Part shown: one piece after another, positions 4,177 through 59,519 of the stretch
Position numbering within the stretch: position 1 is the first letter of the stretch
Layout: every line of letters begins with the position of its first letter
NCBI GenBank assembly: GCA_031459625.1
Contig: JAVKIH010000001.1
Coordinates: forward strand, 117,187 to 181,186
Source: Candidatus Geohabitans tengchongensis
Lineage (GTDB): Bacteria; Sysuimicrobiota; Sysuimicrobiia; Sysuimicrobiales; Humicultoraceae
Length of the DNA stretch: 64,000 bases
Reading direction: 5' to 3'
Program-made: the position numbers and the translations under genes
The notes under the pieces: generated by a model
The model's database searches: none
What the model saw: only the letters and a program-made list of their open reading frames with translations
Told to the model about the DNA's origin: nothing

Positions 4177-6363
4177 ATGAGCCTGCGCCGACGGATCATG
4201 GTGCTGGCGGCCATCGGGATGGTGGCCGCCACTGCGCCGTTGGGGCTCATGGGCGTCGGGATGCTCCGTGCCGCCACCGAGCGCGTCCTGGCCGAACGGC
4301 TCGCCCTGACGCGGGTGACGGCGGAGCACCTCGACGGGCGGCTGAGCCGGAGCCGGGACCACCTGGTGGTCCTGGCGCGCCTGGTGGCGGCCGCGCGGGC
4401 GCGCGGCCGTCTCGGGGAGATGCGCCCCGTCCTCGCGGCCATCACCCTCGAGTCCACAGTGTTCACTGGCGGAGTCCTCCTGACGGACGCCGCGGGTGAG
4501 CTGGTCTTCCAGGAACCCGGCACCGACGCTCTGGCGTTGTCCCGTCAGGACCTGCGCCCGGTGATCCACCAGACCCTGAGCACGGGGCGACCGGCCGTCA
4601 GCACGCTGCTCCGCACGGCCGGCAGCCTCCCCGTCGTCGTCATGACGGTGCCGGTTCCCGGTCCGGGACCCCGGCCGGCGGGAGTGCTGGCCGGAGTGAT
4701 CAACCTGGCGGACCCTGCCCTGCAGACGTTCGTGGAGGGCATGGCCGTCGGCACCACGGGGCACGCCGTCGTCGTGGATGCGGACGGCGTCGTCCTGATG
4801 AGCACCGACCGCAGGGAACTCTTCACGCGGGGCGAGCACCCGGAGTTCTTCATCCGGCACATGCGGGCACGGAAGGCCGCCGTGGGGCCGACGGAGGACC
4901 GCGAGGGGCACGCCATGGCCTTCGTGCCCCTGACGACGGTGCCCTGGGGCGTCGCGGCCGGCCAGGACGAAGAGGAGACCTTCGGCCCGATCCGGCGGCT
5001 GCGCGACCGCATCGTGCTCTTCGGGCTGGCGGTGCTGGCCGCCGCCCTCCTCTTCGCGTGGGTGGACACCGGGGCGGTCGCCGCCCCGCTGCGGTTGCTG
5101 CAGGAGAACGCCGAGCGCATTGCCCGCGGCGACCTGGGGCGTCCCGTGGACGTGCAGCGGGGCGACGAGATCGGCGCGCTGGCGCGGAGCTTCGAGACGA
5201 TGCGGGTCAGGCTCCTGGCCTCTCTGGAAGAGATCCAGCGCCGGGCCGTCGCCTCCCAGGCCCTCTACGAGGTGGGCACCGAGGTGTTGAGTCTGCGGGA
5301 CCGGGATGCGGTGCTGCGTTCTGTCGCCGCCCGTGCCGCCTCGCTCCTCCGGGCCGACGTCGCCGTCGTGTGCCTGTTCGCCGGGCGGGGCGACCGGGCC
5401 GTCGTGCGCGCGGCGTCCGGCCCGGCGGCCGGCGCCGTCGCCCGGGGGAGCACCTTCCCGGTGCCGGCCGGTGATCTCCAGCAGGGCTGCGTGACCTGTG
5501 CCAACATCGACGCGGCGCTCCGCTCGTCGCACCTGGCGGTGCCGCTCACCGTCGGTCGCCGCACGGTGGGTGCGCTCTGTGTCGCCTCCTCCACTCCACG
5601 GACCTTCTCCCCGGAGGACCGCGAGATCCTCAACGGCCTGGCCAACCTGGCCGCTATCGCCGTGGAGAATGCACGGCTGCAGGGGCAGGTGCGGTCACTG
5701 GCGGTCGCTGAGGAGCGCGAGCGCATCGCGCGGGAACTCCACGACAGTGTTGGCCAGGTGTTGGGCTACGTCAACACCAAGGTCCAGGCAGTGAAGCTCC
5801 TGCTGGAGGCCGGGAAACTGCCGGAGGCCCTGGCACAGCTGGGGCAGCTGGAGGACGCGGCGCGCACGAGCTACGCTGACCTGCGGGAGGCCATCCTGGG
5901 GCTGCGCACCGAGATCTCGCCCCACTGCCGGCTGGTGGACGCCTTGCGGGAGTATGTCAGCCGTTTCAGTGAGCTGAGCGGTGTGGAGACCCGGTTGCTC
6001 GTCGAGGGCGATCCTGCCGCATACCTCGTGGACCCGCCCGTCGAGCTCCACCTGATCCGCATCGTCCAGGAAGCGCTGGCCAACGTCCGCAAGCACGCGC
6101 GGGCCCGGCGCGCCTGGGTCTGGTTGGTGGAGCGGGGAGGGACCCTGATGGTGTCCGTCAGCGACGACGGCGTGGGGTTCGACCCGGCCCGCGTCGGCGG
6201 GGGGCTGTGGCCGCGGTTCGGCTTGCAGACCATGCGCGAGCGGGCGGAAGCCATCGGCGGTTCGTTCGCGGTTCGCCGCCGCGACGGCGGGGGTACGGTG
6301 GTGAGCGTCTCCCTGCCCGTGCATCGCGGGGGACCTGTGGATGCGCGTGCTGCTGGTGGATGA
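4177..6363 (+). CDS. sensor histidine kinase (TM - extracytoplasmic domain - TM - HAMP - GAF - HisKA_3 - HATPase)
   Basis: 728 aa. Two hydrophobic segments flank a ~250-aa domain. The H-box 'ERERIARELHDSVGQVL' is typical of NarX/DegS-type HisKA_3. The C-terminus is ATPase-like. Confidence 0.85.
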   Translation: MSLRRRIMVLAAIGMVAATAPLGLMGVGMLRAATERVLAERLALTRVTAEHLDGRLSRSRDHLVVLARLVAAARARGRLGEMRPVLAAITLESTVFTGGVLLTDAAGELVFQEPGTDALALSRQDLRPVIHQTLSTGRPAVSTLLRTAGSLPVVVMTVPVPGPGPRPAGVLAGVINLADPALQTFVEGMAVGTTGHAVVVDADGVVLMSTDRRELFTRGEHPEFFIRHMRARKAAVGPTEDREGHAMAFVPLTTVPWGVAAGQDEEETFGPIRRLRDRIVLFGLAVLAAALLFAWVDTGAVAAPLRLLQENAERIARGDLGRPVDVQRGDEIGALARSFETMRVRLLASLEEIQRRAVASQALYEVGTEVLSLRDRDAVLRSVAARAASLLRADVAVVCLFAGRGDRAVVRAASGPAAGAVARGSTFPVPAGDLQQGCVTCANIDAALRSSHLAVPLTVGRRTVGALCVASSTPRTFSPEDREILNGLANLAAIAVENARLQGQVRSLAVAEERERIARELHDSVGQVLGYVNTKVQAVKLLLEAGKLPEALAQLGQLEDAARTSYADLREAILGLRTEISPHCRLVDALREYVSRFSELSGVETRLLVEGDPAAYLVDPPVELHLIRIVQEALANVRKHARARRAWVWLVERGGTLMVSVSDDGVGFDPARVGGGLWPRFGLQTMRERAEAIGGSFAVRRRDGGGTVVSVSLPVHRGGPVDARAAGG

Positions 6364-7009
6364 CCATCCCCTCTTCCGCGACGGCCTCCGAAGCCTGCTC
6401 CAGGCCCGGGGCGTTCAGGTCGTCGGCGAAGCCAGCGACGGGCAGGAAGCGCTCGAGCGCGCCTGGCAGCTTCGGCCCGACGTGGTCCTGATGGACATCA
6501 CCATGCCCCGGATGGATGGCCTGGAGGCCACGCGGCTCATCAAAGCCCGGATGCCCGACGTCAAAGTCGTCATCCTGACCGTCTCTGACGAGGACCGGAT
6601 GCTCTTCGAGGCGATCAAGAGCGGGGCGCAGGGCTACCTGCTCAAGAACCTGCGGGCTGACGAGTTCTTCGACCTGCTGAGTGGGATCGAGCGAGGCGAG
6701 GCTCCCATCACCCGCCGCCTGGCCAGCCGCATCCTGGAGGAGTTCGCCCGGGAACCCGGCGGCCCGAGCCGACCCGGGACGCACGACGCGCTCACCGAAC
6801 GGGAGCGCGACGTGCTCCGCTGCGTCAGCCAGGGCGCTTCCAACCGCGAGATCGCCGTCATGCTTCGCATCTCGGAGAACACGGTCAAATACCACATGAG
6901 GAACATCCTGGAAAAGCTGCACCTGCGGAACCGCGCCGAAGTGGTGGCCTACGCGGCCCGGCGGGGATGGCTCCCGCCGGAGCGGCCCCCGGACTCCGAC
7001 CCGCCCTAA
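6341..7009 (+). CDS. response regulator, NarL/LuxR family
   Basis: Receiver domain (MRVLLVDDHPLFRDGL…DVVLMDITMP) plus a LuxR-type HTH (ERERDVLRCVSQGASNREIAVMLRISENTVKYHMRNILEKL). It overlaps the kinase gene by 23 nt. Confidence 0.9.
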   Translation: MRVLLVDDHPLFRDGLRSLLQARGVQVVGEASDGQEALERAWQLRPDVVLMDITMPRMDGLEATRLIKARMPDVKVVILTVSDEDRMLFEAIKSGAQGYLLKNLRADEFFDLLSGIERGEAPITRRLASRILEEFAREPGGPSRPGTHDALTERERDVLRCVSQGASNREIAVMLRISENTVKYHMRNILEKLHLRNRAEVVAYAARRGWLPPERPPDSDPP

Positions 7010-7045
7010 CCCCGGCGCGGGAGGGCCCCGCCGGGTCCGGCCCCG

Positions 7046-7065
7046 CCCTACCCGAACGGGTAGGG
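7046..7065. promoter_or_regulatory. perfect 9-2-9 inverted repeat CCCTACCCG-AA-CGGGTAGGG, candidate binding site for the adjacent NarL-type regulator
   Basis: Palindrome read directly from the sequence. It lies ~37 nt after the regulator stop and ~140 nt before the cupredoxin operon. The TACCC half-sites resemble NarL heptamers (TACYYMT). Confidence 0.4.
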
Positions 7066-7205
7066 AGCTTGCCCACCTGCCTGGAGGGTCTGCACCACCC
7101 GTCCCCCTGCCCACTGGTGCGTTGTGGGCGGCGACGCGACCGCCTACCGTCGAAGCGGGCCGGCGCAGGAGCGCCGTCCACGTACCTCAGCGGAGGTGAG
7201 CAACG

Positions 7206-7688
7206 ATGGGGCGTGCAGTGGGGCTCGCCACCATGGTGCTCGTCCTGGCTCTCCTCGTGGGTGCTGCCACCGCGGGCGGCGGGCGGCAGGTGACCGTCAC
7301 CATGGGCGAAGACGGCCCGCGCATGTTCTTCCGCCCGGCTCGGATCGTGCTGGCGTCGGGCGTCGAGACGGAGCTCGTCCTGGTGAACCGCGGCAGGCTG
7401 AAGCACGAGTTCATGGTGTACGCGCCGCCGAAGCCCGGCATGTCGCGGGACGCCCTGCACGAGTGGGCCGAGGACAACAACTACTTCAAGGGCCTTGAGG
7501 TCACCGTGGAGGGTAGCGGGCTGGAAGTGGAGACCAGGGAGCTGATCGAGATCGAAGTCGCCGCGGGGAAATCCGCGGAAGTGAAGTTCACGCCGAAGAA
7601 GACCGGAACGTTTGAGATGGCCTGCCTGATCAAGGATCCGGTGGACCACTACCAGGCGGGGATGCGAGGCACGCTCGTGGTGAAGTAG
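7206..7688 (+). CDS. type-1 (blue) copper protein, plastocyanin/auracyanin-like, secreted
   Basis: N-terminal signal peptide. Candidate Cu ligands are His (LKHEF) … Cys-x7-His-x4-Met (FEMACLIKDPVDHYQAGMRGTLVVK), with the characteristic C-terminal GxLVV. GGAGG RBS. Confidence 0.7.
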   Translation: MGRAVGLATMVLVLALLVGAATAGGGRQVTVTMGEDGPRMFFRPARIVLASGVETELVLVNRGRLKHEFMVYAPPKPGMSRDALHEWAEDNNYFKGLEVTVEGSGLEVETRELIEIEVAAGKSAEVKFTPKKTGTFEMACLIKDPVDHYQAGMRGTLVVK

Positions 7689-7703
7689 TGGAGGTGCGGC
7701 GCC

Positions 7704-8153
7704 ATGGGGCAGAGAGCGGTCACCGCCAGCGCGGTCTTCGTGGCGGTCCTGGCGACGGCGGCGGCCATCTATCTGGTGGATCAAGGGTACCGCCCGCCCA
7801 TCTCGGCCGCGCCGCCGGTGACGCCGGAAATCCGCCGGTTCGACCTCTACCTGCACGCCTTCGAGGTGGGGGACCGCCCCGTCTATCACTGGATGCCGCC
7901 GACGCTGGTCGTCAATGCTGGCGACCCGGTGATGCTGCGGGTGATCAACGCCGACCCTGACAGTGCCCACGGGTTCGCCCTGGGCGCCTTCAACCTCGCG
8001 GTCCCCAGCATCCCGCCCGGGCAGGCCACCACCCTCCGCTTCCGGGCCACGCGGCCCGGTGTGTACCACTTCGGCTGCGCCCTCACCGGCTGCGCTGCGG
8101 ATCACGCCAGCCAGGTGGGCCAGCTCGTCGTCCTGGGCGACACGCCGCCGTGA
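7704..8153 (+). CDS. membrane-anchored cupredoxin-domain protein with a CuA-like Cys-x4-Cys-x3-His-x2-Gln motif
   Basis: N-terminal TM anchor (AVFVAVLATAAAIYLV). Sequence runs HGFAL … YHFGCALTGCAADHASQVGQLVV. RBS GGAGGTG. The stop overlaps the next gene's start. Confidence 0.65.
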   Translation: MGQRAVTASAVFVAVLATAAAIYLVDQGYRPPISAAPPVTPEIRRFDLYLHAFEVGDRPVYHWMPPTLVVNAGDPVMLRVINADPDSAHGFALGAFNLAVPSIPPGQATTLRFRATRPGVYHFGCALTGCAADHASQVGQLVVLGDTPP

Positions 8154-9052
8154 GGGTCTCGCGACGGTCCTTCCTCAAGCTTGCCGCCGCCGCCGGGATG
8201 GTCGCGGCATGGGCGGTGGGCGAGCCGGCGGCTCCGGTGCGCCGCCCGTGGGTGGGGGCGGGCCGCGGCGTGCCGGCCCTCGCCCGCAGCACGGGCCAGG
8301 CCGGTCGGCCACGTCGCTGGGTCATGGTGGTGGACCTGGCCAAGTGTGACGGCTGCCAGGAGTGCACCCGGGCGTGCACCGCCATGCACCGCGTCCCGCC
8401 AGGACAGGAGTGGATTCGGGTCTACGAGATGCGGGACGAGGCCACCGGCCTGGCCTACTGGCTGCCGCGTCCCTGCATGCAGTGCGACAACCCGCCGTGC
8501 GTGAAGGTCTGCCCGGTCAGCGCCACGTGGAAGCGCGACGACGGCATCGTCATGCAGGACACCAGCCGGTGCATCGGCTGTCGGTACTGCATCGCCGCGT
8601 GTCCCTACCAGGCCCGGGCCTTCAACTGGCTCGAGCCGGCCGCCACCCCCGAGCGGACCGGGGAGGCGTACGACCCCGAGTGGAACCGCGTGCATTTCAA
8701 GGGCACCACGGAGAAGTGCATCTTCTGCCCCGCCCTGATCAAGGAGGGGAAGCTTCCCGCCTGCGTGGCAGCCTGTCCCATGGGTGCCATCTATTTCGGC
8801 GACCGTGAGGAAGACGCCGTGACCAACTCCCAGGGCGAGACGGTCCGCTTCTCGGCGCTGGTGACCGAGCAGGCCGGCTACCGCCTGTTGGAGGAGCTGG
8901 GCACCGAGCCGCGCGTCTACTACCTGCCGCCGCGCCAGCGCCTCTACCCCGCGCCGCCGGCGGAGCCGGCGGCGGCACCTGTGCCGGCGGCGGCGCCGCG
9001 ACGGACCGTTCCGCCGGACCGGCCTGGCGCCGTCGGAGGTGCGGTGCCATGA
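8150..9052 (+). CDS. Tat-exported 4Fe-4S ferredoxin-type subunit, NrfC/PsrB/ActB2-like
   Basis: Twin-arginine motif RRSFLKLAAAAG. Multiple Cys clusters (CDGCQECTRAC…CMQCDNPPCVKVCP…CIGCRYCIAACP…CIFCP…CVAACP). GTG start overlaps the upstream stop. Confidence 0.85.
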   Translation: MRVSRRSFLKLAAAAGMVAAWAVGEPAAPVRRPWVGAGRGVPALARSTGQAGRPRRWVMVVDLAKCDGCQECTRACTAMHRVPPGQEWIRVYEMRDEATGLAYWLPRPCMQCDNPPCVKVCPVSATWKRDDGIVMQDTSRCIGCRYCIAACPYQARAFNWLEPAATPERTGEAYDPEWNRVHFKGTTEKCIFCPALIKEGKLPACVAACPMGAIYFGDREEDAVTNSQGETVRFSALVTEQAGYRLLEELGTEPRVYYLPPRQRLYPAPPAEPAAAPVPAAAPRRTVPPDRPGAVGGAVP

Positions 9053-10617
9053 GCAGGCCGCCTCACCACGGGTTCTCGGACCGCGAGGAGCGCCTGCTCG
9101 CCTCGCTGTCGGCGGGCGGAACGGGCTTCTCCGCCTTGATCGGGGGGCTGCTGGCGGTGGTCGTCTGGGGCCTGGTGGCGTATGCCACGCAGCTGCGCCA
9201 CGGCCTGGGCGTCACCGGTCTGCGCGACCACGTCCTGTGGGGCGTCTACATCGCCAACTTCGTCTTCTTCATCGGCGTCAGCCACGTGGGCGCCCTGATG
9301 TCGGCCATCCTGCGTCTGACGGGCGCCGAGTGGCGGCGCCCCATCACCCGCATGGCGGAGGCCATCACCTTTGCCTCCCTCCTGATGGGAGCCCTGATGC
9401 CGGTGGTGGACATGGGGCGACCAGACCGGTTGCTGACCCTCATCGGGCATGGCCGACTGCAGTCCCCGATCCTGTGGGACATCCTGTCCATCACGACCTA
9501 CCTGACCGGCAGTACGCTCTTCCTCTACGTGCCCATGATCCCCGACCTCGCCCTCCTGCGCCACCGCTACGCCGGGGGCCCCGCCTGGCGCCGGCGGCTG
9601 TACACCCTCCTGAGCCTCGGGTGGCAGGACACCCCCGCCCAGCGCCACGCCCTGGAGACCATCATGCGGGTGCTGGCGGTGATGATCATCCCGATCGCCG
9701 TCTCCGTGCACACCGTCGTCTCCTGGATCTTCGGCATGACGCTGCGCGCAGGCTGGAACAGCACCATCTTCGGTCCCTACTTCGTCTCGGGGGCCCTGTT
9801 CAGCGGGGCCGCGGCGGTCGTGACAGCCATGGCGACGTTTCGGTGGGCCTACCACCTGGAGGACTACATCACCGAGGCGCACTTCCGGCGCATGGGCTAC
9901 TTGCTCATCGCGCTGGGGCTGGCGTACGGCTACTTCACGTTCGCGGAGTACCTGACGCCCGCCTACAAGATGGCGACCGCCGAGCGGGGGTACCTCACGG
10001 CCGTCTTCAGCGGTCCCTTGGCGCGGCTGTTCTGGTTCACGCAGCTGACTGGCATCTTGCTCCCGGTGCTCCTCCTCACCCTGCCGCGGATCGCCTGGGT
10101 GCCTCGGCTGCACAGGGTACCGCTGTTGCGACCGCGGCCGGCGCTGGCGGCAGCCGTCACGTACGCCGTCGCCACCGTGGTCCTGTCCGCCGCCGGCCCG
10201 CGCATGACGATGGCCCGCGTGAACCTGACCGCGCTGATCCCACCGTGGGCGCTGCCGGCGCTGGTCCTCTGGCTCTTCCTGGCCTGGCTCCCCGTCTTCC
10301 ACGTCCGGCCCATCGCGGCCGCCGTGGTCGCTTCGCTGCTGGTGAACGTCGGCGCATGGCTCAAGCGCTACCTCATCATCGTCCCGACGCTGCTCAACCC
10401 CTTCCTGCCCATCCAGCGTGCACCGACTGGGTGGGCCGCCTACCAGCCCACCTGGGTGGAGTGGTCGATCACGGCCGGCGCGCTGGCGGGTTTCGCGCTC
10501 ATCTACATCGGGTTCAGCAAGGTGTTCCCCATCATCCCCATCTGGGAGACGCGCCAGGAGCCCGCGCCGCTCCGCCCGGCCGGCCAGGAGGGGGTCCCCG
10601 GTGTCCCGGCGCTTTAG
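9049..10617 (+). CDS. NrfD/PsrC-family polytopic membrane quinol-interacting subunit
   Basis: 522-aa highly hydrophobic protein with ~10 predicted TM segments. NrfD-like N-terminal region (GLRDHVLWGVYIANFVFFIGVSHVGALMSAILRLTGAEWRRPITRMAEA). ATGA overlap with the upstream gene. Confidence 0.85.
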   Translation: MSRPPHHGFSDREERLLASLSAGGTGFSALIGGLLAVVVWGLVAYATQLRHGLGVTGLRDHVLWGVYIANFVFFIGVSHVGALMSAILRLTGAEWRRPITRMAEAITFASLLMGALMPVVDMGRPDRLLTLIGHGRLQSPILWDILSITTYLTGSTLFLYVPMIPDLALLRHRYAGGPAWRRRLYTLLSLGWQDTPAQRHALETIMRVLAVMIIPIAVSVHTVVSWIFGMTLRAGWNSTIFGPYFVSGALFSGAAAVVTAMATFRWAYHLEDYITEAHFRRMGYLLIALGLAYGYFTFAEYLTPAYKMATAERGYLTAVFSGPLARLFWFTQLTGILLPVLLLTLPRIAWVPRLHRVPLLRPRPALAAAVTYAVATVVLSAAGPRMTMARVNLTALIPPWALPALVLWLFLAWLPVFHVRPIAAAVVASLLVNVGAWLKRYLIIVPTLLNPFLPIQRAPTGWAAYQPTWVEWSITAGALAGFALIYIGFSKVFPIIPIWETRQEPAPLRPAGQEGVPGVPAL

Positions 10618-11254
10618 CGCTAGCGCGCTGATCGCCGGCCCGGGGGGGGTCTGGCTGGGCCTGGCGGTGGCGGCGCTGTTCGCCTGCCCGGCGTGGGCCG
10701 CCGAGCCGGCCCGCATCACCCTGGAGGTGGCGGGCCTCGAGGACGCGCGGTGGATCATGGCCGTGGTCACCGACGCGACAGGCGCGCCGGTGCCCGAGGC
10801 GCTCATCGTGTTCAAGGCCCGCACGACCTTCGGCTGGCTCCTCCTGGAGGAGCGATCGACGGACGCCGCCGGCCGGGCGCGGATGGGCCTTCCCGCCGGC
10901 GTGCGGGCGACGGCGATCCGAGCGGAGAGCGCGGACATCGGGCAGGTGCACGCGACCGTGCGCGTGGGTGGACCGTCCCCGGCCACTCCGCGGGTGCGAC
11001 CGGACCGCGACGTGCTCAGGGCCCTGAGCCCGCAGCCGGGCGTGATCAGTCCCTATCCCGTGCCGGCGCAGGTGGCGCTGCTCGCGGCGGTCCTGGGCGG
11101 GATCTGGGCGACGTATGGGTATGTGGCCTGGCTCCTGTGGCGCATCCGCACGTCCGGTCGGTCGCAGGGCGTGAGGGCGCCGGCGTCCCCGGAGCGGGAA
11201 CCGCTCACTGCTCGGCTTGGGTGGCCTCCAGGAAGGCGTGCAGGGCTGTCGTGA
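10601..11254 (+). CDS. hypothetical secreted/membrane-anchored beta-sandwich (carboxypeptidase-regulatory-like) protein
   Basis: GTG start overlaps the NrfD-like stop. N-terminal signal peptide. The pattern 'ITLEVAGLEDARWIMAVVTDATGAPVPEALIVF…TDAAGRARMGLPAGV' resembles CarboxypepD_reg/prealbumin-like folds. C-terminal TM helix. Confidence 0.5.
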   Translation: MSRRFSASALIAGPGGVWLGLAVAALFACPAWAAEPARITLEVAGLEDARWIMAVVTDATGAPVPEALIVFKARTTFGWLLLEERSTDAAGRARMGLPAGVRATAIRAESADIGQVHATVRVGGPSPATPRVRPDRDVLRALSPQPGVISPYPVPAQVALLAAVLGGIWATYGYVAWLLWRIRTSGRSQGVRAPASPEREPLTARLGWPPGRRAGLS

Positions 11255-11999
11255 ACGCTTCCGGCGTCTCCAGGTTGCTCAGGTGGCCCGCCTCCGGCAG
11301 CACGATCAGCCGGCTGTTCGGGATGGCTGCGGCCATGGCCCGCGCGACCTCCGGCGGGGTGACCGAGTCCTCCTCCCCGACGAGGACCAGGGTGGGCACG
11401 GTGATCTGGGACAGGAGGGGACGGCTGTCGGGACGGGCCGCCAGCGCCCGCAGGGTGGCCGCCAGCGCCCGCGGATCCGCCGTCGCCGCCAGTGCCTCCA
11501 CGGTGGCGACGACGTGAGGACGGCGGGCGCGGGTCGTAGGACCCACCAGCCCGCCGACGAAGTCGCGCAGGGCCTCGCACCCCTCCTGCGCGACGCGCGC
11601 GGCCAGCGCCAGGCGGCGCGCCCGGCCCTCCTCCGTGTCCGGCTCGGCTCGCGTGTCGGCAAGGACGAGCCGGGTGGCGAAGGTCGGCGCCTGCTCCAGC
11701 AGCCGGAAGGCCACGTAGCCGCCCATGGAGAGACCGATCACGGTGGCCCGGGCGATGCCCAGTGACGCTGCCAGCGCCCTCACGTCGGCGGCGAGCTGCG
11801 CCAGCGTCACCTGGTCGCTGACGGAGGACTCCCCGAAGCCGCGCAAGTCCACGGTGAGCACCTGAAACCGGTCGCGCAGTCCGGCGACCTGGGGCCGCCA
11901 CATGCCCCGGTGGAGGGGGAAGCCGTGCAGGAAAAGGAGGGGCTCGCCGCTCCCCTCCAGGTCGTAGCCCAGCGTCACCCCGTCCACGGTGCGTCGCAT
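11205..11999 (-). CDS. alpha/beta hydrolase fold protein
   Basis: 264 aa. HGFPLHRGMW and the nucleophile elbow GLSMGG are present, with a catalytic His near the C-terminus. Confidence 0.85.
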   Translation of the reverse strand: MRRTVDGVTLGYDLEGSGEPLLFLHGFPLHRGMWRPQVAGLRDRFQVLTVDLRGFGESSVSDQVTLAQLAADVRALAASLGIARATVIGLSMGGYVAFRLLEQAPTFATRLVLADTRAEPDTEEGRARRLALAARVAQEGCEALRDFVGGLVGPTTRARRPHVVATVEALAATADPRALAATLRALAARPDSRPLLSQITVPTLVLVGEEDSVTPPEVARAMAAAIPNSRLIVLPEAGHLSNLETPEAFTTALHAFLEATQAEQ

Positions 12000-12052
12000 C
12001 GTGCCCTCCTCCTCGGGCGGGCTGCCGGCATGCCCTTGCTATCATACAGACC

Positions 12053-12619
12053 GTGCGGATCCTGGCCTGTGCCGACCTCCACGGACGGCCGGCTCGCGTG
12101 GCGCGGGTCCGGGCGCTGGTCGCCGAGCACCGCCCCGATGTCCTCTGTCTGGCGGGAGACCTGACGCACGCTGGCAGCGGCTCCGGGGCCCTCCAGCTGC
12201 TGGAGACCCTGGACGTGCCCATCGTGGCCGTGTCGGGGAACATGGACGACGCCCACACCGTGGAGGCGATGCGGCGGCGCGGGGTCCTCCTCGGCGACTC
12301 CCCCCGGGTCATCGGTGGGGTGACCTTCGCCGGCCCCGAGGTGGCCGGGCCCTGCGACGTGCTGGTGACGCACGAGCCTCCCGCCGGCGTGCTGGACCGC
12401 GTGGGCACCGGCCGGCACATCGGCTCCCCGGCGGTGCGCGCGCTGATCGAGCGCTGGCAACCGCGGCTGCACGTCTGCGGCCACGTCCACGAGTCGCCGG
12501 GCGTGGTCCGCCTGGGCGCCACGACGGTCGTGAACTGCACGCTGGGCCGCGACGAGATCGCCGGCGCCTTGGCCGTCCTCGAGGGCGAAGCGCTGGACGT
12601 GCGCCTCCTCCCCCCGTAA
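12053..12619 (+). CDS. metallophosphoesterase (calcineurin-like)
   Basis: Motifs ACADLHG…GDLTH…GNMD…VTHEPP…CGHVHE. GTG start. Confidence 0.8.
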   Translation: MRILACADLHGRPARVARVRALVAEHRPDVLCLAGDLTHAGSGSGALQLLETLDVPIVAVSGNMDDAHTVEAMRRRGVLLGDSPRVIGGVTFAGPEVAGPCDVLVTHEPPAGVLDRVGTGRHIGSPAVRALIERWQPRLHVCGHVHESPGVVRLGATTVVNCTLGRDEIAGALAVLEGEALDVRLLPP

Positions 12620-12789
12620 CTACTCCGCTCCCCATCGGTGGGTGGGCCCGGTCGTCGGACTGCAGGCCCGCCGCCCACCGCCCTGGTGCGGCCGTTCGTG
12701 CTCCCTTCCGGCTAGTTGTGCGTCACAGTGAGACCGCGGAGAGCGGGCGGTGCAAGCATGGCCTCACACCGACGAGAGGTCAACCAGCC

Positions 12790-13503
12790 GTGGGAGAGCC
12801 GGGGAGGGACGCGCGGAGCGGCGCGGGCCAACAGACGCTCCCGGCGGCGGAGACGCTGCTGCCGCTCGTCCGGGGGATTGCCCGGGGCGTGGCGCAGGCG
12901 TTGCCGCCGTCGGTGGAGGTGGACGACCTCGTACACGACGGGGTCGTGGGGTTGCTCGAGGCGATCGGGCGGTTCGACCCGTCGCGCGGCGTGGACTTCA
13001 GCACCTACGCCACCTACCGCATTCGGGGAGCCATCCTCGACGGCCTGCGCGGGCGCGACCCGCTCCCCCGCAGCCTGCGCCGCCAGCTGGGCGCGGCGCC
13101 CCGCGCATCGGCCCCGCTGGCCGTCGTGCCGCTGAAGGTCGTCCCACTGGATGCGGCCCTCGTCCTCGCCGGCGACGACGGGCAGCCCGAGGAGGCCCTG
13201 CTGGCCGAGGAGTTGCGGGCCGAGGTGGAGCGAGCCCTGCGCGCCCTCCCCCCGCGCCACCGGCGGCTCCTGGCCCTGCGCTTCGGCCGGGGGCTGCGCC
13301 TGCGGGAGGTGGCCGCCTGCTTCGGGATCTCCATGACGCGCGCAGCGGAGCTCCAGGAGCGGGCCATCCGCCGGCTGCGCACAGCCCTGGCGGTGGAACA
13401 CCCCGACGGGCTCTCCCCGAACGGCAAGCCGCGGCGGCGCCGTCCTGCAGCCAACGCCGCTCCGAGCGTCCCGCCGGGCGAGCCAGCCACGGTTTCCAGG
13501 TGA
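12790..13503 (+). CDS. RNA polymerase sigma factor, sigma-28 (FliA/WhiG/SigD) family
   Basis: Region 2 (DDLVHDGVVGLLEAIGRFDPSRGVDFSTYATYRIRGAILDGLRGRDPLPRSLRR) is near-identical in pattern to FliA. Region 4 HTH is LALRFGRGLRLREVAACFGISMTRAAELQERAIRRLR. Start is inferred (GTG 12790; GTG 12718 is possible). Confidence 0.75.
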   Translation: MGEPGRDARSGAGQQTLPAAETLLPLVRGIARGVAQALPPSVEVDDLVHDGVVGLLEAIGRFDPSRGVDFSTYATYRIRGAILDGLRGRDPLPRSLRRQLGAAPRASAPLAVVPLKVVPLDAALVLAGDDGQPEEALLAEELRAEVERALRALPPRHRRLLALRFGRGLRLREVAACFGISMTRAAELQERAIRRLRTALAVEHPDGLSPNGKPRRRRPAANAAPSVPPGEPATVSR

Positions 13504-13519
13504 CCGCCTGGAGGGCATA

Positions 13520-14323
13520 GTGGCCCGCCAGGGTTGGGGAGGGAGCATGGCCGGGCGCGAGGGAGGCGTGTGGTCTGCTCCGGATGCCGTGGCCGCGGTG
13601 GAGCAGATCCACGCCCACTTTCTCTGCAACGCCCTCACCGCGGTCCAGCTCTGGGTGGGGACACACCCCCGCCTCGCCGAGCAGCTCATCGGGTTGCTGG
13701 CCGGATACGTGCAGGCCCGGCTCACCCCGGCCACGGTCGTCCCGCTGCGGCACGAGCTCGAGGTCGTGCTCACCTACCTGGCCCTCGAGCGGGTGCGACT
13801 GGGACCACGTCTGCGCACCCGGCTGGCCATCGCCCCCGAGACGCTGACGGCCGCCATCCCGCCGCTCGTCCTCCAGCCGCTGGTCGAGAACGCGGTGATC
13901 CACGGGGTGAGCGCCCGGCCGCTGGGCGGCACGGTGGAGGTGCACGCCTGCCGGCGGCGAGATCGGCTGCTCCTCCTGGTGGCCGACGACGGGCTCCCGG
14001 TGGCCGCCGACGGGAGGGTCGCCGACGGGCATCGAGCGCAGCGGGCGTGGCTCGGCGGAGGGCGATCACGACCCGGCCCGGGGCTGGCGCTGCGCAACGT
14101 GCGCCGCCGGCTGCACCTGGCGTACGGTCGGCAGGGAGCGGTGCGCGTGGTGCGCCGCCTCGGACGCGGGTGGCTGGCGGTGGCGAGCCTGCCCTTTGAG
14201 GAGGCCGGAGAGACGGAGGCGACCGCAGAGACGGTGGGACCGCCGGCGTGGCCGGAGGAGCGCGGGCAGCGTGCGGAGCAGGGGCACGGAGGGGCGGATG
14301 CGGGCCCTCGTGGTGGACGATGA
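13520..14323 (+). CDS. LytS/YehU-type histidine kinase core (His_kinase + HATPase_c), cytoplasmic, no membrane sensor domain
   Basis: H-box 'QIHAHFLCNALTAV' and ATPase motifs (LVLQPLVENAVIHG…). No hydrophobic segments. ~267 aa. Confidence 0.7.
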   Translation: MARQGWGGSMAGREGGVWSAPDAVAAVEQIHAHFLCNALTAVQLWVGTHPRLAEQLIGLLAGYVQARLTPATVVPLRHELEVVLTYLALERVRLGPRLRTRLAIAPETLTAAIPPLVLQPLVENAVIHGVSARPLGGTVEVHACRRRDRLLLLVADDGLPVAADGRVADGHRAQRAWLGGGRSRPGPGLALRNVRRRLHLAYGRQGAVRVVRRLGRGWLAVASLPFEEAGETEATAETVGPPAWPEERGQRAEQGHGGADAGPRGGR

Positions 14324-15008
14324 GGCAGCGGGGCGCCGGCTGCTCGGCCGGCTGCTCCGCGATCTGGGGCACGCGGTCGTGGCCGAGGCCAGCACCGGCG
14401 CGGAGGCACTGGCCGTGCTGGCGCACCGGACGGTCGATGCCGCCTTCCTCGACATCCGGCTCCCGGACCTGGACGGGCTGGCGGTGGGGGATCGGTGCCG
14501 GCGGGCCGGGATCCCGGTCGTCTTCGTCACCGGGTTTCCGGACTACGCGCTCCCCGCCTACGACGTGGCGGCGGTCGACTACCTGGTGAAACCACCGACC
14601 CTCGACCGGCTGGGGCGGGCCCTGGCTCGCCTGCGCGCGGCCGGGGAACAGACAGCGTCCCAGGGCGGGGCCCCGGACCGGCTGTGCCTGCGCGTGGATG
14701 GCGAGCACCGCCTCATCGCGGTGCGCCACGTGCTGGCGGTGCGGGCCGACGGTGCCGTGGTCACCCTGTGGCTTGAGGAGGGGTCGCTGCGGGCCCGGGT
14801 CCCGCTCGGGCGCCTGGAGCAGCTGCTCGTGCCCCACGGCTTCTTCCGCTGCCACCGCGCCTACCTGGTGAACCTGCGCCGGGTGCGGCGGATCGTCGCC
14901 TGGTCGCGCGAGGCCCACAGCCTCCTGCTCGACGACGCACAGGAAACCCTCATCCCCCTGGCCAAATCCCGCAGGCGGGCGCTGCGCGCGTTGCTCCTCT
15001 GGCCTTAG
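14298..15008 (+). CDS. response regulator, LytTR family
   Basis: Receiver domain (MRALVVDDEAAGRRLL…DAAFLDIRLPDLDGL) plus a LytTR DNA-binding domain (…RLIAVRHVLAVRADGAVVTLWLEEGSLRARVPLGRLEQLL…FFRCHRAYLVNLRRV). Overlaps the kinase gene. Confidence 0.85.
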   Translation: MRALVVDDEAAGRRLLGRLLRDLGHAVVAEASTGAEALAVLAHRTVDAAFLDIRLPDLDGLAVGDRCRRAGIPVVFVTGFPDYALPAYDVAAVDYLVKPPTLDRLGRALARLRAAGEQTASQGGAPDRLCLRVDGEHRLIAVRHVLAVRADGAVVTLWLEEGSLRARVPLGRLEQLLVPHGFFRCHRAYLVNLRRVRRIVAWSREAHSLLLDDAQETLIPLAKSRRRALRALLLWP

Positions 15009-15108
15009 ACTGCCCGGGGCGCCGGCGCAGGGTCCCCTCTGCGGCGTGCCCGCGCGCGGTCCACGCCGGAGGTCTCGGGCAGGCCGGTTCACCGGTGGGG
15101 AGGCAGGG

Positions 15109-15897
15109 ATGGACCTGGGGATCCGGGGACGGGTGGCGCTGGTCACCGGCGCGAGCCGCGGCCTGGGACGGGCCGTGGCGGTGGCGCTGGGGCGGGAGGG
15201 CGCGCGAGTGGCTCTGGCCGCACGCTCGGCCGAGGCGCTGCGGGCAGCGGTGGCCGAGGTGCGCGGCGTCGGCGGCGAGGCGGTGGACATCGTCGCGGAC
15301 GTGGCCACCGCGGAAGGGGCCACCCGGGCCGCGGAGGAGGCGGCGCGGCTGGGCCCCGTGGAGATCCTGGTGGCCAATGCCGGCGGCCCGCCCGCGGGAG
15401 CCTTCCTCGAGGTGGACGACGCGGCGTGGGAGGAGGCCGTCCGCCTCACCCTGCTCAGCGTCGTGCGCCTCTGCCGCGCCGTCATCCCGGGGATGCGTCA
15501 GCGACGGTGGGGGCGGATCATCGCCGTGACTTCCTACGTGATGAAGCAGCCCCTGCGCGGCCTCGTCCTGAGCAACAGCGTGCGCCTGGCCGTGGCGGGC
15601 CTGACGAAGACGCTGGCCGACGAGCTGGGTCCCCACAACATCCTGGTGAACACCGTCTGTCCAGGCCCGATCGCCACCGACCGGCTGGTAGCCCTCACCC
15701 GCACGATGGCGGCGCGCCAGGGGATCTCCGAGGAAGAGGCAACGCAGCGCCTGTGGACCGACGACCTCCCACTAGGACGGCTGGGGCGGCCGGAGGAGTT
15801 CGCCGCGGTGGTGGCCTTCCTGGCCTCGGAGCAGGCCAGCTTCGTCACGGGGACGGTGATCCAGGTGGATGGCGGCAAGATCCGGGGGGTGCTGTGA
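15109..15897 (+). CDS. SDR-family oxidoreductase
   Basis: TGASRGLG Rossmann motif. Classical SDR layout. ATG is preceded by GGGGAGG. Confidence 0.85.
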   Translation: MDLGIRGRVALVTGASRGLGRAVAVALGREGARVALAARSAEALRAAVAEVRGVGGEAVDIVADVATAEGATRAAEEAARLGPVEILVANAGGPPAGAFLEVDDAAWEEAVRLTLLSVVRLCRAVIPGMRQRRWGRIIAVTSYVMKQPLRGLVLSNSVRLAVAGLTKTLADELGPHNILVNTVCPGPIATDRLVALTRTMAARQGISEEEATQRLWTDDLPLGRLGRPEEFAAVVAFLASEQASFVTGTVIQVDGGKIRGVL

Positions 15898-15946
15898 GCG
15901 GCCGCGCCCCGGGGGTGCCGGACGGCCGTGGGGCCGCGCGCGTGCG

Positions 15947-16630
15947 GTGTGGCGGTGGGCGGGTGGGCTGCTCCTCCTGGCCACCGTGGGGGTGCTGGCC
16001 GCCCCGGTCCTGGCCCGGGAGGCGATCGCCTTCCGCGCCGACGACGGGGTGCTCCTCCGCGGCCATGCCTTCGGCACGGGGTGGGGTGTCGTGATCTTCT
16101 CCCACATGTACGGCACCGACCAGCGCATCTGGTTCGACCTGGCCGAAGCGGCCGCACGGCGCGGGCTCACCGCCGTGACCTACGACTACCGGGGGATTGG
16201 CCGGTCGGCGGGCCGCTTCGTCATCGCCCAGACCTGGCGCGACGCGGTGGCGGCGGTCGACCTGGTCCGGCGGCGGGGCTCGGACCGCCCGGTGGTCCTG
16301 GTGGGCGCGAGCATGGGCGGGACGGTCTCGCTGCGCGCGGCCGCGGAGCGGCCGGTGCAGGGGGTCGTCGTGGTGGCGAGCGGCATGCGCTTCCGGGGCC
16401 TGGACGTGCGGCCGCACCTAGCGGCGCTGCGCGCGCCCAAGCTCTTCATCGCCGGCAGCCGGGACGAGCCCTTCGCCACCAGCGTGCGCACGATGTACGC
16501 GCGCACGCCGCCGCCCAAGGCGCTGCGCCTCTACCCGACCGCCGCCCACGGGACCGACCTCTTCGGGACACGCCACGGGCCGGCGGTGCGGCGGGAGATC
16601 CTGGCGTTCGTGGTCCGCCACGCGCGGTAG
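15947..16630 (+). CDS. secreted alpha/beta hydrolase (dienelactone hydrolase/BAAT-like)
   Basis: Signal-peptide-like N-terminus. GASMGG nucleophile elbow. GTG start inferred. Confidence 0.7.
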   Translation: MWRWAGGLLLLATVGVLAAPVLAREAIAFRADDGVLLRGHAFGTGWGVVIFSHMYGTDQRIWFDLAEAAARRGLTAVTYDYRGIGRSAGRFVIAQTWRDAVAAVDLVRRRGSDRPVVLVGASMGGTVSLRAAAERPVQGVVVVASGMRFRGLDVRPHLAALRAPKLFIAGSRDEPFATSVRTMYARTPPPKALRLYPTAAHGTDLFGTRHGPAVRREILAFVVRHAR

Positions 16631-16660
16631 CCGGTCCGCCCGGAGGCCGGGCGGCCCGTC
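16631..16660 (+). terminator. putative GC-rich hairpin (CCGCCCGG-agg-CCGGGCGG) after the hydrolase gene
   Basis: Read from the sequence. 8-bp stem with no U-tract, as expected in high-GC taxa. Confidence 0.25.
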
Positions 16661-16763
16661 ACGGGTTCAGAGCCAGCCTGTCGCGGGTTCAGGGGCAGCC
16701 CGGCGGGCGTGGCGTCGGCGACTGTCACGGCCGGTGTCATGGGCAGCCTCCACGCGGCGTCGA

Positions 16764-16772
16764 TGGTATACT
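16764..16772 (+). promoter_or_regulatory. extended -10 promoter element (TGgTATACT) for tRNA-Glu
   Basis: TGnTATACT lies ~20 nt upstream of the tRNA 5' end. The -35 element is weak. Confidence 0.35.
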
Positions 16773-16794
16773 GAGAAGCGCGTCCTGTTGCTTG

Positions 16795-16872
16795 GCCCCC
16801 ATCGTCTAGCCAGGCCTAGGACCCCGGTCTTTCAAGCCGGTAACGCGGGTTCGAATCCCGCTGGGGGCACCA
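16795..16872 (+). tRNA. tRNA-Glu (anticodon UUC)
   Basis: Cloverleaf built by hand. Acceptor stem GCCCCCA/TGGGGGC, anticodon loop CTTTCAA, T-loop GGTTCGAATCC, encoded CCA. Confidence 0.85.
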
Positions 16873-16914
16873 TGGTCCGGCTGCGCATCGCTCCCATCCC
16901 TCGCGGGCCCCGTC

Positions 16915-16944
16915 ATTGTCAATGCCCGCCCGTTCCCTCTATAC
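16915..16944 (+). promoter_or_regulatory. sigma70-like promoter (TTGTCA-18-TATACT) followed by an A-rich tract, upstream of the sugar ABC operon
   Basis: AT-rich island in a ~72% GC background, read from the sequence. Confidence 0.4.
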
Positions 16945-17086
16945 TTGCTAAAAAATCCCGTTGTGTCGGGTTTGTCAGGCGACTTGGCGCTGCGGGCCGC
17001 GGCCGTCGGGAGGGGCGGTCCCGACGGCCTGCGGTCCTGGGGAGCATCTGCGGTCCACACCGATGGATCGAGGAGGTGGGCGGGGA

Positions 17087-21741: not shown

Positions 21742-23166
21742 TCACTCGTACAGGAGGTAGCGGCTCCGCAGCGCCTCGAACCGGCGCAGCGCCGGTTGCC
21801 AGCGCGCCACGATGGCCTCCGCGGGCAGCCCGCGCGTGAGGTCCACCCGCACCTGCTTGGTCCCCCAGACCACGTCGAAGAGGGCCCGGCCGCGGCGGGG
21901 CAGCCGGAAGCGCAGCTGCCCCGGGTGGAGGTCGCGGATCTCCGCCAGCACGTAGACGGTCGTGGTGGCCGGGCGGAAGGCGGCGCGGTCCGTCACGTGC
22001 AGCCGCACTCCGCGCCACACCCGTCCCGTGCGCGGGTGGGGGACGGCAGAGGGGGAGAAGCGCACCCCCGGCAGCCCGCGGCGGTTGAGGCGGGCGGCCA
22101 GGCGCTCGCCGTCCATCCAGGGCGCCAGCACCACCTGGAAGCGCGAGGTGGTGGCCACCCCGTTCCACAGGTTCGTCCCGTCGAGCGGGCCGGTGGCGGC
22201 GTAGTAGAAGGGGGCGTCGGCGTGGGTGAGGCCCGGGGAGGGGTTCACCCAGGGCAGCCCCGTCTCGGTCCAGGGCATGCTCCGGCTCCACCCCTGCATG
22301 GGCACGACGGTGAGCTGGGCGCCGATGCCGAAGGCGTCGTTGTACAGGCGGGCGAGTTCCCCGAGCGTCATCCCGTGCACCAGCGGGATCGGGTAGAGCC
22401 CGATGAAGGAGCGGAAGGCGGGCTCGAGCACCGGGCCGTCGACGACGGTGCCGCCGAGCGGGTTGGGCCGGTCGAGGACGACGACGGGCTTGCCGGCCTC
22501 GCGGGCGGCCGCCATCACCAGCGCCATCGTGGAGGCGTAGGTGTACGGGCGCGTACCGGCGTCCTGCAGGTCGACCACGAGGACGTCCACGCGCGCCAGC
22601 ATCTGCCGCGTCGGCCGGAAGGCGCCGCCGTAGAGGCTGTACACCGGCGTCCGCGAGGGGAGGATCGCCCCCGGTGCGCCGCCGATGTGGGTGCTGGCCA
22701 CGGGGACGCCCGCGCCCGCACTGCCGTCGAACCCGTGCTCGGGGGCGAAGAGCGCGGTGAGGCGCACCCCGGGCGTGCGGGCCAGCGCCGCCGCGGTGAG
22801 GTCGCCCGCGGCGGTCGTGCCGGCCAGGTGGGTGACCAGGCCGACGCGCTTGCCAGCGAGCGGTGCCGGGTCGGTGAGCAGGGTGTCGGCCCCGAGACGG
22901 ACCTCGGGGCGGAGGTCCGACCCGCCGGCCCACAGCGCCGGGCCCCACGACCAGAGGACCAGGAGGACGACGACCGCGACGAGACGCAAGACGCGAGGGC
23001 TCCGAGACCGGTCACGCGCCGGACCGTGGACCGGTGGCGCGTTGGTCGGTAAGATTCGGTTGATCGCTGACGGGTTCCTGCCCAGGCCCGCCGCCGCGTA
23101 GACGTCTCGTGCAGCCCTGAGGAGGTCTCCTGTGGTGACGCTCCCTCCCGAGGCCTTCGAGGCCAA
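21742..23166 (-). CDS. namZ: DUF1343 protein, exo-beta-N-acetylmuramidase NamZ-like
   Basis: Conserved DUF1343 blocks (VGLVTHLAGT…DVLVVDLQDAGTRPYTYASTMALVMAAA…VLDRPNPLGG). N-terminal TM/signal. True start uncertain (ATG 23166 or TTG ~22989). Confidence 0.75.
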   Translation of the reverse strand: MASKASGGSVTTGDLLRAARDVYAAAGLGRNPSAINRILPTNAPPVHGPARDRSRSPRVLRLVAVVVLLVLWSWGPALWAGGSDLRPEVRLGADTLLTDPAPLAGKRVGLVTHLAGTTAAGDLTAAALARTPGVRLTALFAPEHGFDGSAGAGVPVASTHIGGAPGAILPSRTPVYSLYGGAFRPTRQMLARVDVLVVDLQDAGTRPYTYASTMALVMAAAREAGKPVVVLDRPNPLGGTVVDGPVLEPAFRSFIGLYPIPLVHGMTLGELARLYNDAFGIGAQLTVVPMQGWSRSMPWTETGLPWVNPSPGLTHADAPFYYAATGPLDGTNLWNGVATTSRFQVVLAPWMDGERLAARLNRRGLPGVRFSPSAVPHPRTGRVWRGVRLHVTDRAAFRPATTTVYVLAEIRDLHPGQLRFRLPRRGRALFDVVWGTKQVRVDLTRGLPAEAIVARWQPALRRFEALRSRYLLYE

Positions 23167-25848: not shown

Positions 25849-25923
25849 GGGCGGTTAGCTCAGCGGGAGAGCGCATGCTTCACACGCATGAGGTCGCAGG
25901 TTCGAGCCCTGCACCGCCCACCA
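25849..25923 (+). tRNA. tRNA-Val (anticodon CAC)
   Basis: Manual cloverleaf. Acceptor GGGCGGT/ACCGCCC, anticodon stem CATGC/GCATG, loop TTCACAC, T-loop GGTTCGAGCCC, encoded CCA. Confidence 0.9.
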
Positions 25924-32422: not shown

Positions 32423-32498
<76 letters not shown>

Positions 32499-44142: not shown

Positions 44143-44577
44143 GTGCAGGCGCAGCGGCCGGCCATGGATGACCGCATCGACATCCTGGCGGGGATGGCGC
44201 TCTTCGCCGACCTCTCCCGCGCCCAGCTCGAGGCCGTGGCCCACACCTTCGAGGAGGAGTGGTTCAGCGAGGGCCAGCGCATCCTGCGGCAGGGGCTCTC
44301 CGGGGCGGGGTTCTACGTGATCCTGGATGGCGAGGTGGCGGTGCGCGTGGACGGGGAAACGCGCGCCACCCTGGCGCGCGGGGACGTCTTCGGCGAGGTC
44401 TCGGCGCTGCTGGGCGAGCCGCCGGTGGCCGACGTGGTGGCCCTGCGGCCGCTGCGCTGCCTGGTGCTGGCGGCGCCGGAGGTGAAGGGGTTCCTGCTGG
44501 CCTATCCGACGGTGATGTACCGGATGCTCCAGGTCGTGGCGCGGCGGCTCCGCCACGCCACCCAGTGGCGCGCGTGA
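44143..44577 (+). CDS. cyclic-nucleotide-binding (CAP-effector) domain protein with no DNA-binding domain
   Basis: cNMP-binding signatures (FSEGQRILRQGLSGAGFYVILDGEV…GDVFGEVSALLGEP…RCLVL). Confidence 0.75.
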   Translation: MQAQRPAMDDRIDILAGMALFADLSRAQLEAVAHTFEEEWFSEGQRILRQGLSGAGFYVILDGEVAVRVDGETRATLARGDVFGEVSALLGEPPVADVVALRPLRCLVLAAPEVKGFLLAYPTVMYRMLQVVARRLRHATQWRA

Positions 44578-46103: not shown

Positions 46104-46182
46104 CGGCACGCCGCAGCAGCGGGTGACGGGGCCGGCCTCATCTGCCGAAGGTGGCCGTTTGCAACTGGGCCCGGGGCGAGTG

Positions 46183-51193: not shown

Positions 51194-51298
51194 CGGCGTG
51201 AGCCGCGTGAGGGGCGCGGGCGCCGCGCGCTGCCGTTGCGGCGGTGTCGCGGCCCTCATCCCGGCGGCGATCCCGTGAGCGCGCCCCCCACCGGCCAC

Positions 51299-52327: not shown

Positions 52328-52331
52328 CCCC

Positions 52332-59512: not shown

Positions 59513-59519
59513 GGAGCGG

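Follow-up and report, generated by a model that had tools for sequence, protein, structure and literature searches.

In the sigE-cseA-cseB-cseC operon of Streptomyces coelicolor, the sigma gene comes first and is followed in the same operon by the genes of a kinase and a response regulator, there is no classical anti-sigma factor, and the regulator presumably acts on the promoter of the operon. The sigma factor of that system is of the extracytoplasmic function (ECF) type ECF39, the regulator is of the OmpR type, and the kinase CseC senses envelope stress from the membrane. Here we describe a cassette with a similar layout at positions 12790-15008 (+ strand) of a 64,000-nucleotide stretch of Candidatus Geohabitans tengchongensis (GCA_031459625.1, contig JAVKIH010000001.1), hereafter called the window. 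It differs from sigE-cseABC in having a FliA-derived sigma factor, a LytTR response regulator and a histidine kinase without a sensor.

Other described systems resemble parts of the cassette. In LytS/LytR, BtsS/BtsR (YehU/YehT) and AlgZ(FimS)/AlgR, a kinase with the PF06580 core is likewise encoded next to a regulator with receiver (REC) and LytTR domains. Sensing in those kinases relies on a membrane domain, 5TM-Lyt or another, in some cases with GAF, whereas the cassette kinase has no such domain, and none of these pairs is known to be linked to a sigma gene. The streptococcal ComD/ComE -> ComX (SigX) pathway is alike in its logic, since a LytTR-type two-component system turns on an alternative sigma factor; ComD is an HPK10-type membrane peptide sensor, comX lies outside the comDE operon, and ComX is not FliA-like. 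For sigma-2, sigma-4 and the region 2.4-3.0 signature, the closest sequence relatives are found in FliA/FlgM and WhiG/RsiG, from which the cassette sigma is set apart by the absence of a folded sigma-3 domain, of a FlgM or RsiG neighbour and of any flagellar or developmental context. WhiG, the chlamydial sigma-28 and the cyanobacterial SigF illustrate that the FliA lineage can serve non-flagellar programmes.

FliA-like group 3 sigma factors with a weak sigma-3 have been found to cluster at the base of the ECF tree, where they were set aside without characterisation (Casas-Pastor et al. 2021, PMC7826278), and the cassette sigma shares the transitional architecture of these group 3/group 4 'link' sigmas. 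Neither the term 'LytTR' nor 'Armatimonadetes' occurs in that paper, which describes no link to LytTR or to CSP1-3, and our literature search found no description of this cassette. The family of each part and the overall design of a sigma factor with a two-component system are already known. What is new is the combination of a FliA-derived, sigma-3-less sigma factor with a LytTR system, the lineage-wide presence of a sensor-less PF06580 kinase, and the restriction, among the matches listed, to a candidate phylum. The three genes are the following:

12790-13503, +, sigma factor gene, GTG start, 237 aa
13547-14323, +, PF06580 histidine kinase gene, 258 aa (or 267 aa when counted from GTG 13520)
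14298-15008, +, response regulator gene with REC and LytTR (Pfam Response_reg, LytTR), 236 aa

The first-pass annotation of this DNA, made from the letters alone, had named a sigma factor, a soluble LytS-type kinase and a LytTR regulator at this place, and the Pfam and NCBIfam searches agree with it. The genes are co-oriented and translationally coupled, with a gap of 16-43 nt between sigma and kinase and an overlap of 26 nt between kinase and regulator.

A FliA-derived sigma factor without sigma-3

The sigma protein gives Pfam matches to Sigma70_r2 (1.1e-17) and Sigma70_r4 (2.4e-10), and none to Sigma70_r3. Its best NCBIfam family is TIGR02479 (FliA_WhiG) with 137.6 bits, as against 65 bits for SigB/F/G, but this match falls into two separate stretches and remains below the curated cut-off of 189.6 bits. 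With this score and without sigma-3, the earlier assignment to the sigma-28 (FliA/WhiG) family was overstated. TIGR02937 is passed, a model that spans the entire sigma-70 r2-r4 superfamily, and the ECF model PF07638 (Sigma70_ECF) reaches 19.0 bits for a cut-off of 21.1. In NCBI the identical protein goes by no more than 'sigma-70 family RNA polymerase sigma factor', and JGI pipelines label its relatives 'FliA'.

The nearest solved structure is E. coli FliA (6pmi_F, 6.8e-42). Region 2, through the 2.4-3.0 signature, and region 4 align with it at nearly every residue, and nothing in the cassette sigma corresponds to FliA residues 122-159. The region 2.4-3.0 signature, R-x-RGA-x-LD-x-LR-x-x-D-x-x-PRS-x-RR, is present: RIRGAILDGLRGRDPLPRSLRR in the sigma protein aligns residue for residue with RIRGAMLDELRSRDWVPRSVRR in E. 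coli FliA. The FliA-like character of region 2, which had been noticed at the outset, is thus confirmed, and this motif is invariant across the sigma factors of the related loci described below (the clade).

In the AlphaFold model, sigma-2 (aa 20-102) and sigma-4 (133-199) have pLDDT >90, the linker between them (104-129) is disordered with pLDDT <50, and a basic C-terminal tail follows sigma-4. The 29-member clade alignment has a linker of variable length and low complexity, rich in Ala, Gly and Pro, which is followed by a short conserved motif. The distance from sigma-2 to sigma-4 is ~30 aa structurally and ~59 aa between the Pfam domain ends, the latter exceeding the 50-aa ECF rule for this gap (PMC7826278). 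None of the 36 closest sigma homologues (137-472 bits) has a Pfam Sigma70_r3 match, which most lower-scoring FliA homologues have. We conclude that this sigma factor is FliA-derived, has lost the sigma-3 domain and is ECF-like in its modelled two-domain layout, its affinity at the sequence level being with FliA and not with the ECFs. It offers a living intermediate, of clear FliA ancestry, for group 3 sigmas shedding sigma-3 towards the ECF layout.

Outside the clade, a 227-aa FliA (P0160; L095, 8001-8684) from a low-GC (40%) genome also has no Pfam sigma-3 match, and its gene is part of an otherwise typical flagellar operon, flhA-flhF-flhG-pilZ-cheC-cheD-fliA. A missing r3 match alone is therefore no marker of a non-flagellar sigma factor.

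A sensor-less kinase and its regulator

The PF06580 His_kinase domain covers aa 28-98 of the kinase with 45.3 bits (cut-off 25.2), and HATPase_c is matched weakly, with 24.2 bits, just under the cut-off of 26.4. Pfam found nothing N-terminal to the His box, the 5TM-Lyt membrane sensor (PF07694) being absent, and no 19-residue window of the protein has a Kyte-Doolittle mean >=1.4; the lack of a 5TM-Lyt sensor noted in the first reading therefore stands. The phospho-accepting residue is His33 (267-aa numbering), and the protein begins about 20-30 residues before it. A Shine-Dalgarno sequence, GGGAGGGAG, precedes ATG 13547, which is also used in the public gene calls of identical sequences; this ATG is more likely the kinase start than the first GTG, at 13520.

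The AlphaFold model of the kinase (pTM 0.72) consists of a disordered segment (1-19), helices (20-97) with His33 at a helix start, an alpha/beta ATPase domain up to residue 225 and a disordered tail, that is, only a part like the dimerization and histidine phosphotransfer domain (DHp) plus the ATPase. Its top match among solved folds is the GanS kinase domain (6swk), followed by canonical cores of DHp and catalytic domain (DHp-CA).

We reconstructed the kinase in 25 related loci, where it always has 210-267 aa and where at most 55 codons separate the sigma stop from the kinase His box. In these 25 proteins the 19-residue Kyte-Doolittle mean never reaches 2.0 and in most it is <1.6. The His, the N box (LVENAxxHG) and the G1 and G2-like boxes are kept in the clade, with G1 being DDGLP in the window species and DDGPG in most relatives. 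The nearest database homologues (42-95% identity) have 213-258 aa, and the more distant relatives have 340-440 aa with hydrophobic N-termini of ~150 aa. A profile searched against 1.84 billion representatives gave 108,267 relatives, of which the best 150 were examined. Among these 150, the CSP1-3 type alone convincingly combines full length with the absence of a sensor; in the remaining ones the match begins at residue >=140, or they are apparent fragments or have miscalled starts. The kinase is therefore a conserved sensor-less LytS-type core, predicted to be cytoplasmic, and it bears on the question of how a histidine kinase without an input domain is controlled.

Several apparent exceptions among the kinase relatives were discarded. 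Apparent close relatives of 650-840 aa are tandem-duplicated whole modules of transmembrane (TM) segments and kinase, in which two domain scores simply add. P0252 and P0260 (770-800 aa), for instance, contain two near-identical tandem copies of a membrane LytS-type kinase (TM plus core); these are either true tandem fusions or artefacts of assembly or gene calling, and the summed domain scores inflate their rank. The N-terminal extension of P0251 (345 aa) most likely comes from a start miscalled into an alternative frame of the sigma gene, which is plausible because such open frames are common at 74% GC. P0325, P0372, P0394, P0330, P0353 and P0369, considered as short relatives, look like fragments, internal-Met calls or single-TM proteins. 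Readthrough from sigma into kinase was also rejected, since the two genes are in the same frame with one stop between them in 5 loci, which is rarer than the 1 in 3 expected by chance.

In 25 loci the regulator retains its receiver residues (DD, D, T, K) as well as HRAYLVNL, a LytTR motif. Its best NCBIfam match is BtsR (101 bits, below the BtsR cut-off). Judging from these residues, an intact cognate regulator with REC, LytTR and a predicted phospho-acceptor adjoins the kinase.

Conservation in CSP1-3 and the upstream DNA

The clade alignment of the sigma factor was searched against GTDB, with one genome per species. Among the matches listed, at least 26 loci have 43-61% sigma identity, and then bona fide FliA loci follow at 29-38%. 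The order sigma-kinase-regulator, followed by a gene of the short-chain dehydrogenase/reductase (SDR) family, is kept in L001-L031, about 30 loci among the matches listed, and it recurs in five metagenomic contigs reached via the kinase. In 54 bona fide FliA control loci, a kinase or LytTR neighbour was never found (0/54). The cassette had been called an unusual one, and it is indeed both unusual and real.

Among the matches listed, the clade loci all come from metagenome-assembled genomes (MAGs) of CSP1-3 (Sysuimicrobiota). Those with names belong to Humicultoraceae, namely to Ca. Humicultor riflensis, from which the original CSP1-3 MAG comes, and to six species of Fervidifonticultor, and no cassette loci from other named CSP1-3 families occur among the matches listed. 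An identical sigma protein is present in the NCBI assemblies GCA_031459375.1 and GCA_031459435.1. These are the MAGs JZ-2_201901_bins_58 and JZ-2_201808_bins_219 of Geohabitans tengchongensis, Humicultoraceae (Liu et al. 2024, PMC11604079), with 73.2-73.5% G+C and the GTDB assignment p__CSP1-3; f__CSP1-3; g__SpSt-190 (PMC11604079). The cassette is a lineage-specific regulatory operon of CSP1-3, an abundant uncultivated phylum of soils and hot springs whose regulation is unstudied and for which it provides one conserved regulatory signature.

The conserved unit is larger than the three genes initially delimited, which are confirmed as its core; the divergent hydrolase, the SDR gene and a conserved upstream block also belong to it, and its value as a hallmark of the lineage had been missed. 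The additional features in the window are:

11205-11999, -, divergent alpha/beta hydrolase, 3-oxoadipate enol-lactonase-like (below cut-off), Pfam Abhydrolase_1 4e-32
12053-12619, +, small metallophosphoesterase, 188 aa, Pfam Metallophos 2e-17
12690-12789, +, conserved non-coding block, putative promoter/operator, from nucleotide conservation upstream of sigma
15109-15897, +, SDR-family oxidoreductase, 262 aa, Pfam adh_short_C2 1e-50, start checked
15947-16630, +, second alpha/beta hydrolase, downstream of the SDR, from Pfam and tblastn comparison with related loci

By tblastn, every clade locus long enough has the order hydrolase(-) | [phosphoesterase] sigma-kinase-regulator-SDR [-second hydrolase], with the bracketed genes present in part of the loci. 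The divergent hydrolase (48-91% identical; NCBIfam pcaD-like, 163 bits for a cut-off of 256) lies upstream of sigma in every clade locus long enough, and the SDR (53-97% identity, with generic SDR matches only in NCBIfam) lies 3' of the regulator in all those reaching that far. The metallophosphoesterase is restricted to the closer loci of group A (L001, L003, L005, L007-L010 and L031) and is absent from L011-L030, and the second hydrolase follows the SDR in closer relatives only, being truncated in L001. The sigma and kinase genes are always adjacent in the clade, and their stop and start codons often overlap or abut.

Synteny stops at the edges of this block even between ~90%-identical genomes. 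Compared with L001, the window has a ~7-kb insertion between citrate synthase and the divergent hydrolase, and the downstream content differs as well. The inserted segment, at 4177-10617 between citrate synthase (2832-3968) and the hydrolase and absent from the ~90%-identical L001, has genes for a kinase (dCache-HAMP-GAF-HisKA_3), a LuxR-type regulator, two proteins resembling cupredoxins, a 4Fe-4S protein and a membrane subunit of the NrfD type. This content suggests an inserted redox module that includes a two-component system of its own. In L001, the closest relative (6123-7743), the second hydrolase is a C-terminal remnant, and a pair of genes for an RskA-type anti-sigma factor and an ECF sigma factor is inserted on the opposite strand; the downstream edge of the cassette is therefore a rearrangement hot spot.

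No terminator-like site was found in 11900-17000, and the operon probably ends with the SDR gene or one gene after it. A tRNA gene (16795-16869) just 3' of the second hydrolase marks where the conserved block ends; it is the first of three tRNA genes found with Rfam in the window, all on the + strand (the others at 25849-25920 and 32423-32495). A strong sigma-70-like promoter match, TTGTCA-18-TATACT, follows this first tRNA at 16916-16945.

Upstream of sigma, a block of ~85 nt is conserved at the nucleotide level in the 9 closer loci, in which the proteins encoded there are only ~57% identical. It contains CCGTTCG (12692), the palindromic GTCAC-N-GTGAG (12722-12732), whose central base varies among the closer loci, and CATGG (12757-12761). 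The ribosome binding site of the sigma gene, GAGAGGT, lies 8-10 nt before the GTG start, and the block listing has GAGGTC at 12776-12781. A2/T6 hexamers are found 28-39 nt before the sigma start codon in both groups of loci. From this conservation we infer that 12690-12789 is a putative promoter/operator. The motif GTCACNGTGAG has one exact copy in the window, with near-matches at chance level. A 30-nt-spaced pair of CGTGTCAC is found in L005 and L009 only. The sequence at 12692-12700 resembles the AlgR core site, CCGTTCGTC, which is a lead and not a result. We rejected a leader RNA or riboswitch upstream of sigma, since RNAalifold with 9 sequences gave -8.2 kcal/mol and essentially no covariation; Rfam had no match in the block, the three tRNAs being its only matches in the window.

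In L011-L030, CATCATAGCGCA is conserved ~150-200 nt upstream of sigma, beside the start of the divergent hydrolase. Its reverse complement, TGCGCTATGATG, holds a TATGAT -10 box, which suggests that, in contrast to the sigma operon, this hydrolase is transcribed from an ordinary housekeeping promoter.

Control of the operon and the wider window

We suggest that the cassette is a self-contained operon of a sigma factor and a two-component system, similar to sigE-cseBC, in which the regulator acts on the upstream block and the output is non-flagellar, and we give this reading a probability of about 0.5. The kinase would autophosphorylate on its conserved His and pass the phosphate to the LytTR regulator. 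Having no sensor, it would be controlled from the cytoplasm, by a partner protein, a metabolite or its own abundance; the SDR, the hydrolases and the phosphoesterase could be named as candidate inputs, although without evidence. The phosphorylated regulator would bind the block upstream of sigma and set the transcription of the whole operon, so that the three products would increase jointly through a feedback loop, like those of sigE-cseABC or comCDE -> comX, and the sigma factor would steer RNA polymerase to a non-flagellar regulon. A two-component system encoded together with a sigma gene is an accepted means of controlling the transcription of that gene (PMC7826278).

Several observations weigh against this reading. 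Conserved gene order alone is no proof of functional coupling. The distant loci have other upstream motifs (CCCCAGTTG, ~33 nt, and GCGGCAT(C/G)CT), a consistent -35 was not found, promoter elements are not confidently assignable, and the two groups of loci differ. The per-locus repeat scan of the upstream block found no consistent pair or spacing of LytTR-style direct repeats. Within the window we found no target promoters or regulon members, and the upstream motif occurs there once. The G1 box of the window kinase is DDGLP rather than DxGxG, and by sequence a reduced ATP binding is conceivable. Finally, the inference that flagella are lacking is a family-level statement based on roughly 90%-complete MAGs, and their absence is implied, not stated, in the published survey.

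The flagellar alternative is that the sigma gene is simply fliA, with the flagellar genes elsewhere in the genome. It can appeal to the best-matching family, to a signature (RIRGAILDGLRxRDPLPRSxRR) nearly that of E. coli FliA, to the 'FliA' label of the JGI pipelines and to the fact that some CSP1-3 families are flagellated (PMC11604079). What we found around the gene points elsewhere. A Pfam scan of 58 GC3-based gene calls across the window detected no flagellar or chemotaxis family (fli, flg, che), as had been noticed for the neighbourhood, and no flagellar gene, FlgM or RsiG was seen at any clade locus. The nearest sigma factors outside the clade are instead embedded in flhA-flhF-flhG-fliA operons with FlgM nearby, and the sampled FliA control loci have FHIPEP, FlhF-like, CheC, CheD and FapA genes beside fliA; true FliA thus has flagellar neighbours, and the cassette is missing from all 54 controls. 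The score under the curated cut-off and the absent sigma-3 also disagree with an ordinary FliA. The sigma-28 promoter form considered was TAAA-N15-GCCGATAA, and its -10 box GCCGATAA (<=1 mismatch) occurs 16 times in the window versus 17.5 expected, none exact, so this -10 box is not enriched here; a regulon could not be delimited from a single 64-kb window in any case. Within CSP1-3, the core genes of flagella and chemotaxis are reported in Sysuimicrobiaceae and Thermofontiviventaceae only (PMC11604079), and the cassette occurs in Humicultor, Fervidifonticultor and Geohabitans, whose family is not listed as flagellated there. On the concern, raised in the first-pass annotation, that a flagellar regulon might exist elsewhere in the genome, this survey argues against it at the family level only. 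We consider the sigma factor non-flagellar and the fliA explanation unlikely, indeed very improbable once all of this is counted. Neither the name fliA, which some pipelines give, nor a conclusion of motility is warranted for such sigma genes, and they bear on the fate of fliA in a lineage without reported flagella. The idea that the kinase gene is a 5'-truncated remnant of a membrane LytS-type kinase, which had also been anticipated, is scarcely credible: distant relatives do carry the long hydrophobic N-termini, but the short form is kept in about 30 loci (33-95% identity) with intact motifs, a high GC3 coding signal and coupled translation signals. The orthologues being equally short, with intact catalytic boxes, the pseudogene explanation is effectively refuted.

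The main rival to the sigE-like operon proposed above assigns the kinase a double role as anti-sigma factor, replacing FlgM or RsiG, with a cytoplasmic cue switching it between holding the sigma factor and phosphorylating the regulator. Sigma/anti-sigma pairs typically show such constant adjacency, with stop and start codons that often overlap or abut, the cassette has no conserved small ORF, FlgM-like or otherwise, GHKL-fold anti-sigma kinases have an established precedent in SpoIIAB and RsbW, and a sensor-less kinase needs some partner. The kinase also has a weak HATPase_c_2 match (8e-4), but this is sub-threshold and common among histidine kinases, and a full His-kinase core with a coupled cognate regulator suffices to explain the protein. 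We regard this double role as rather unlikely, and slightly more so its fuller version, in which the kinase would hold the sigma-3-less FliA descendant and release it when phosphorylating its LytTR partner, an arrangement that might have evolved when flagella were lost and fliA was kept and rebuilt. Another explanation is that the sigma factor and the two-component system are independent and that the block persists by slow rearrangement or by shared transcription of unrelated functions. All ties between the genes are indeed ties of gene order, the flanking SDR and hydrolases are generic enzymes, and no shared motif or regulon was found within the window and the upstream block. Against this, synteny breaks right outside the block even in ~90%-identical genomes, and the block, its start and stop codons coupled, is still intact where sigma identity is as low as 43%, so that independence appears rather unlikely to us. 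If the kinase does regulate the sigma factor directly, the cassette would represent a new wiring of two-component signalling to sigma availability; if it does not, it would add one more case of two-component control over a sigma gene, mainly of value for annotation.

The window has 70-78% G+C throughout. Genes for peptidoglycan and amino-sugar recycling are clustered at 21742-22989 (-), 51275-53519 (+), 56847-57539 (+) and 58343-61813 (-), amid ABC sugar or peptide transporters. The set comprises a NamZ exo-muramidase, a SIS protein, an amidohydrolase (NagA-like), a NanE epimerase, a MurQ-like SIS protein, the AnmK anhydro-MurNAc kinase and a beta-lactamase-family protein, and no link between these genes and the cassette was established. 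At 44143-46611, a pyridine-nucleotide-disulphide oxidoreductase (44565-46103) lies between two small proteins with cNMP-binding domains (44143-44577, +, and 46183-46611, -), and a cupin is encoded just upstream.

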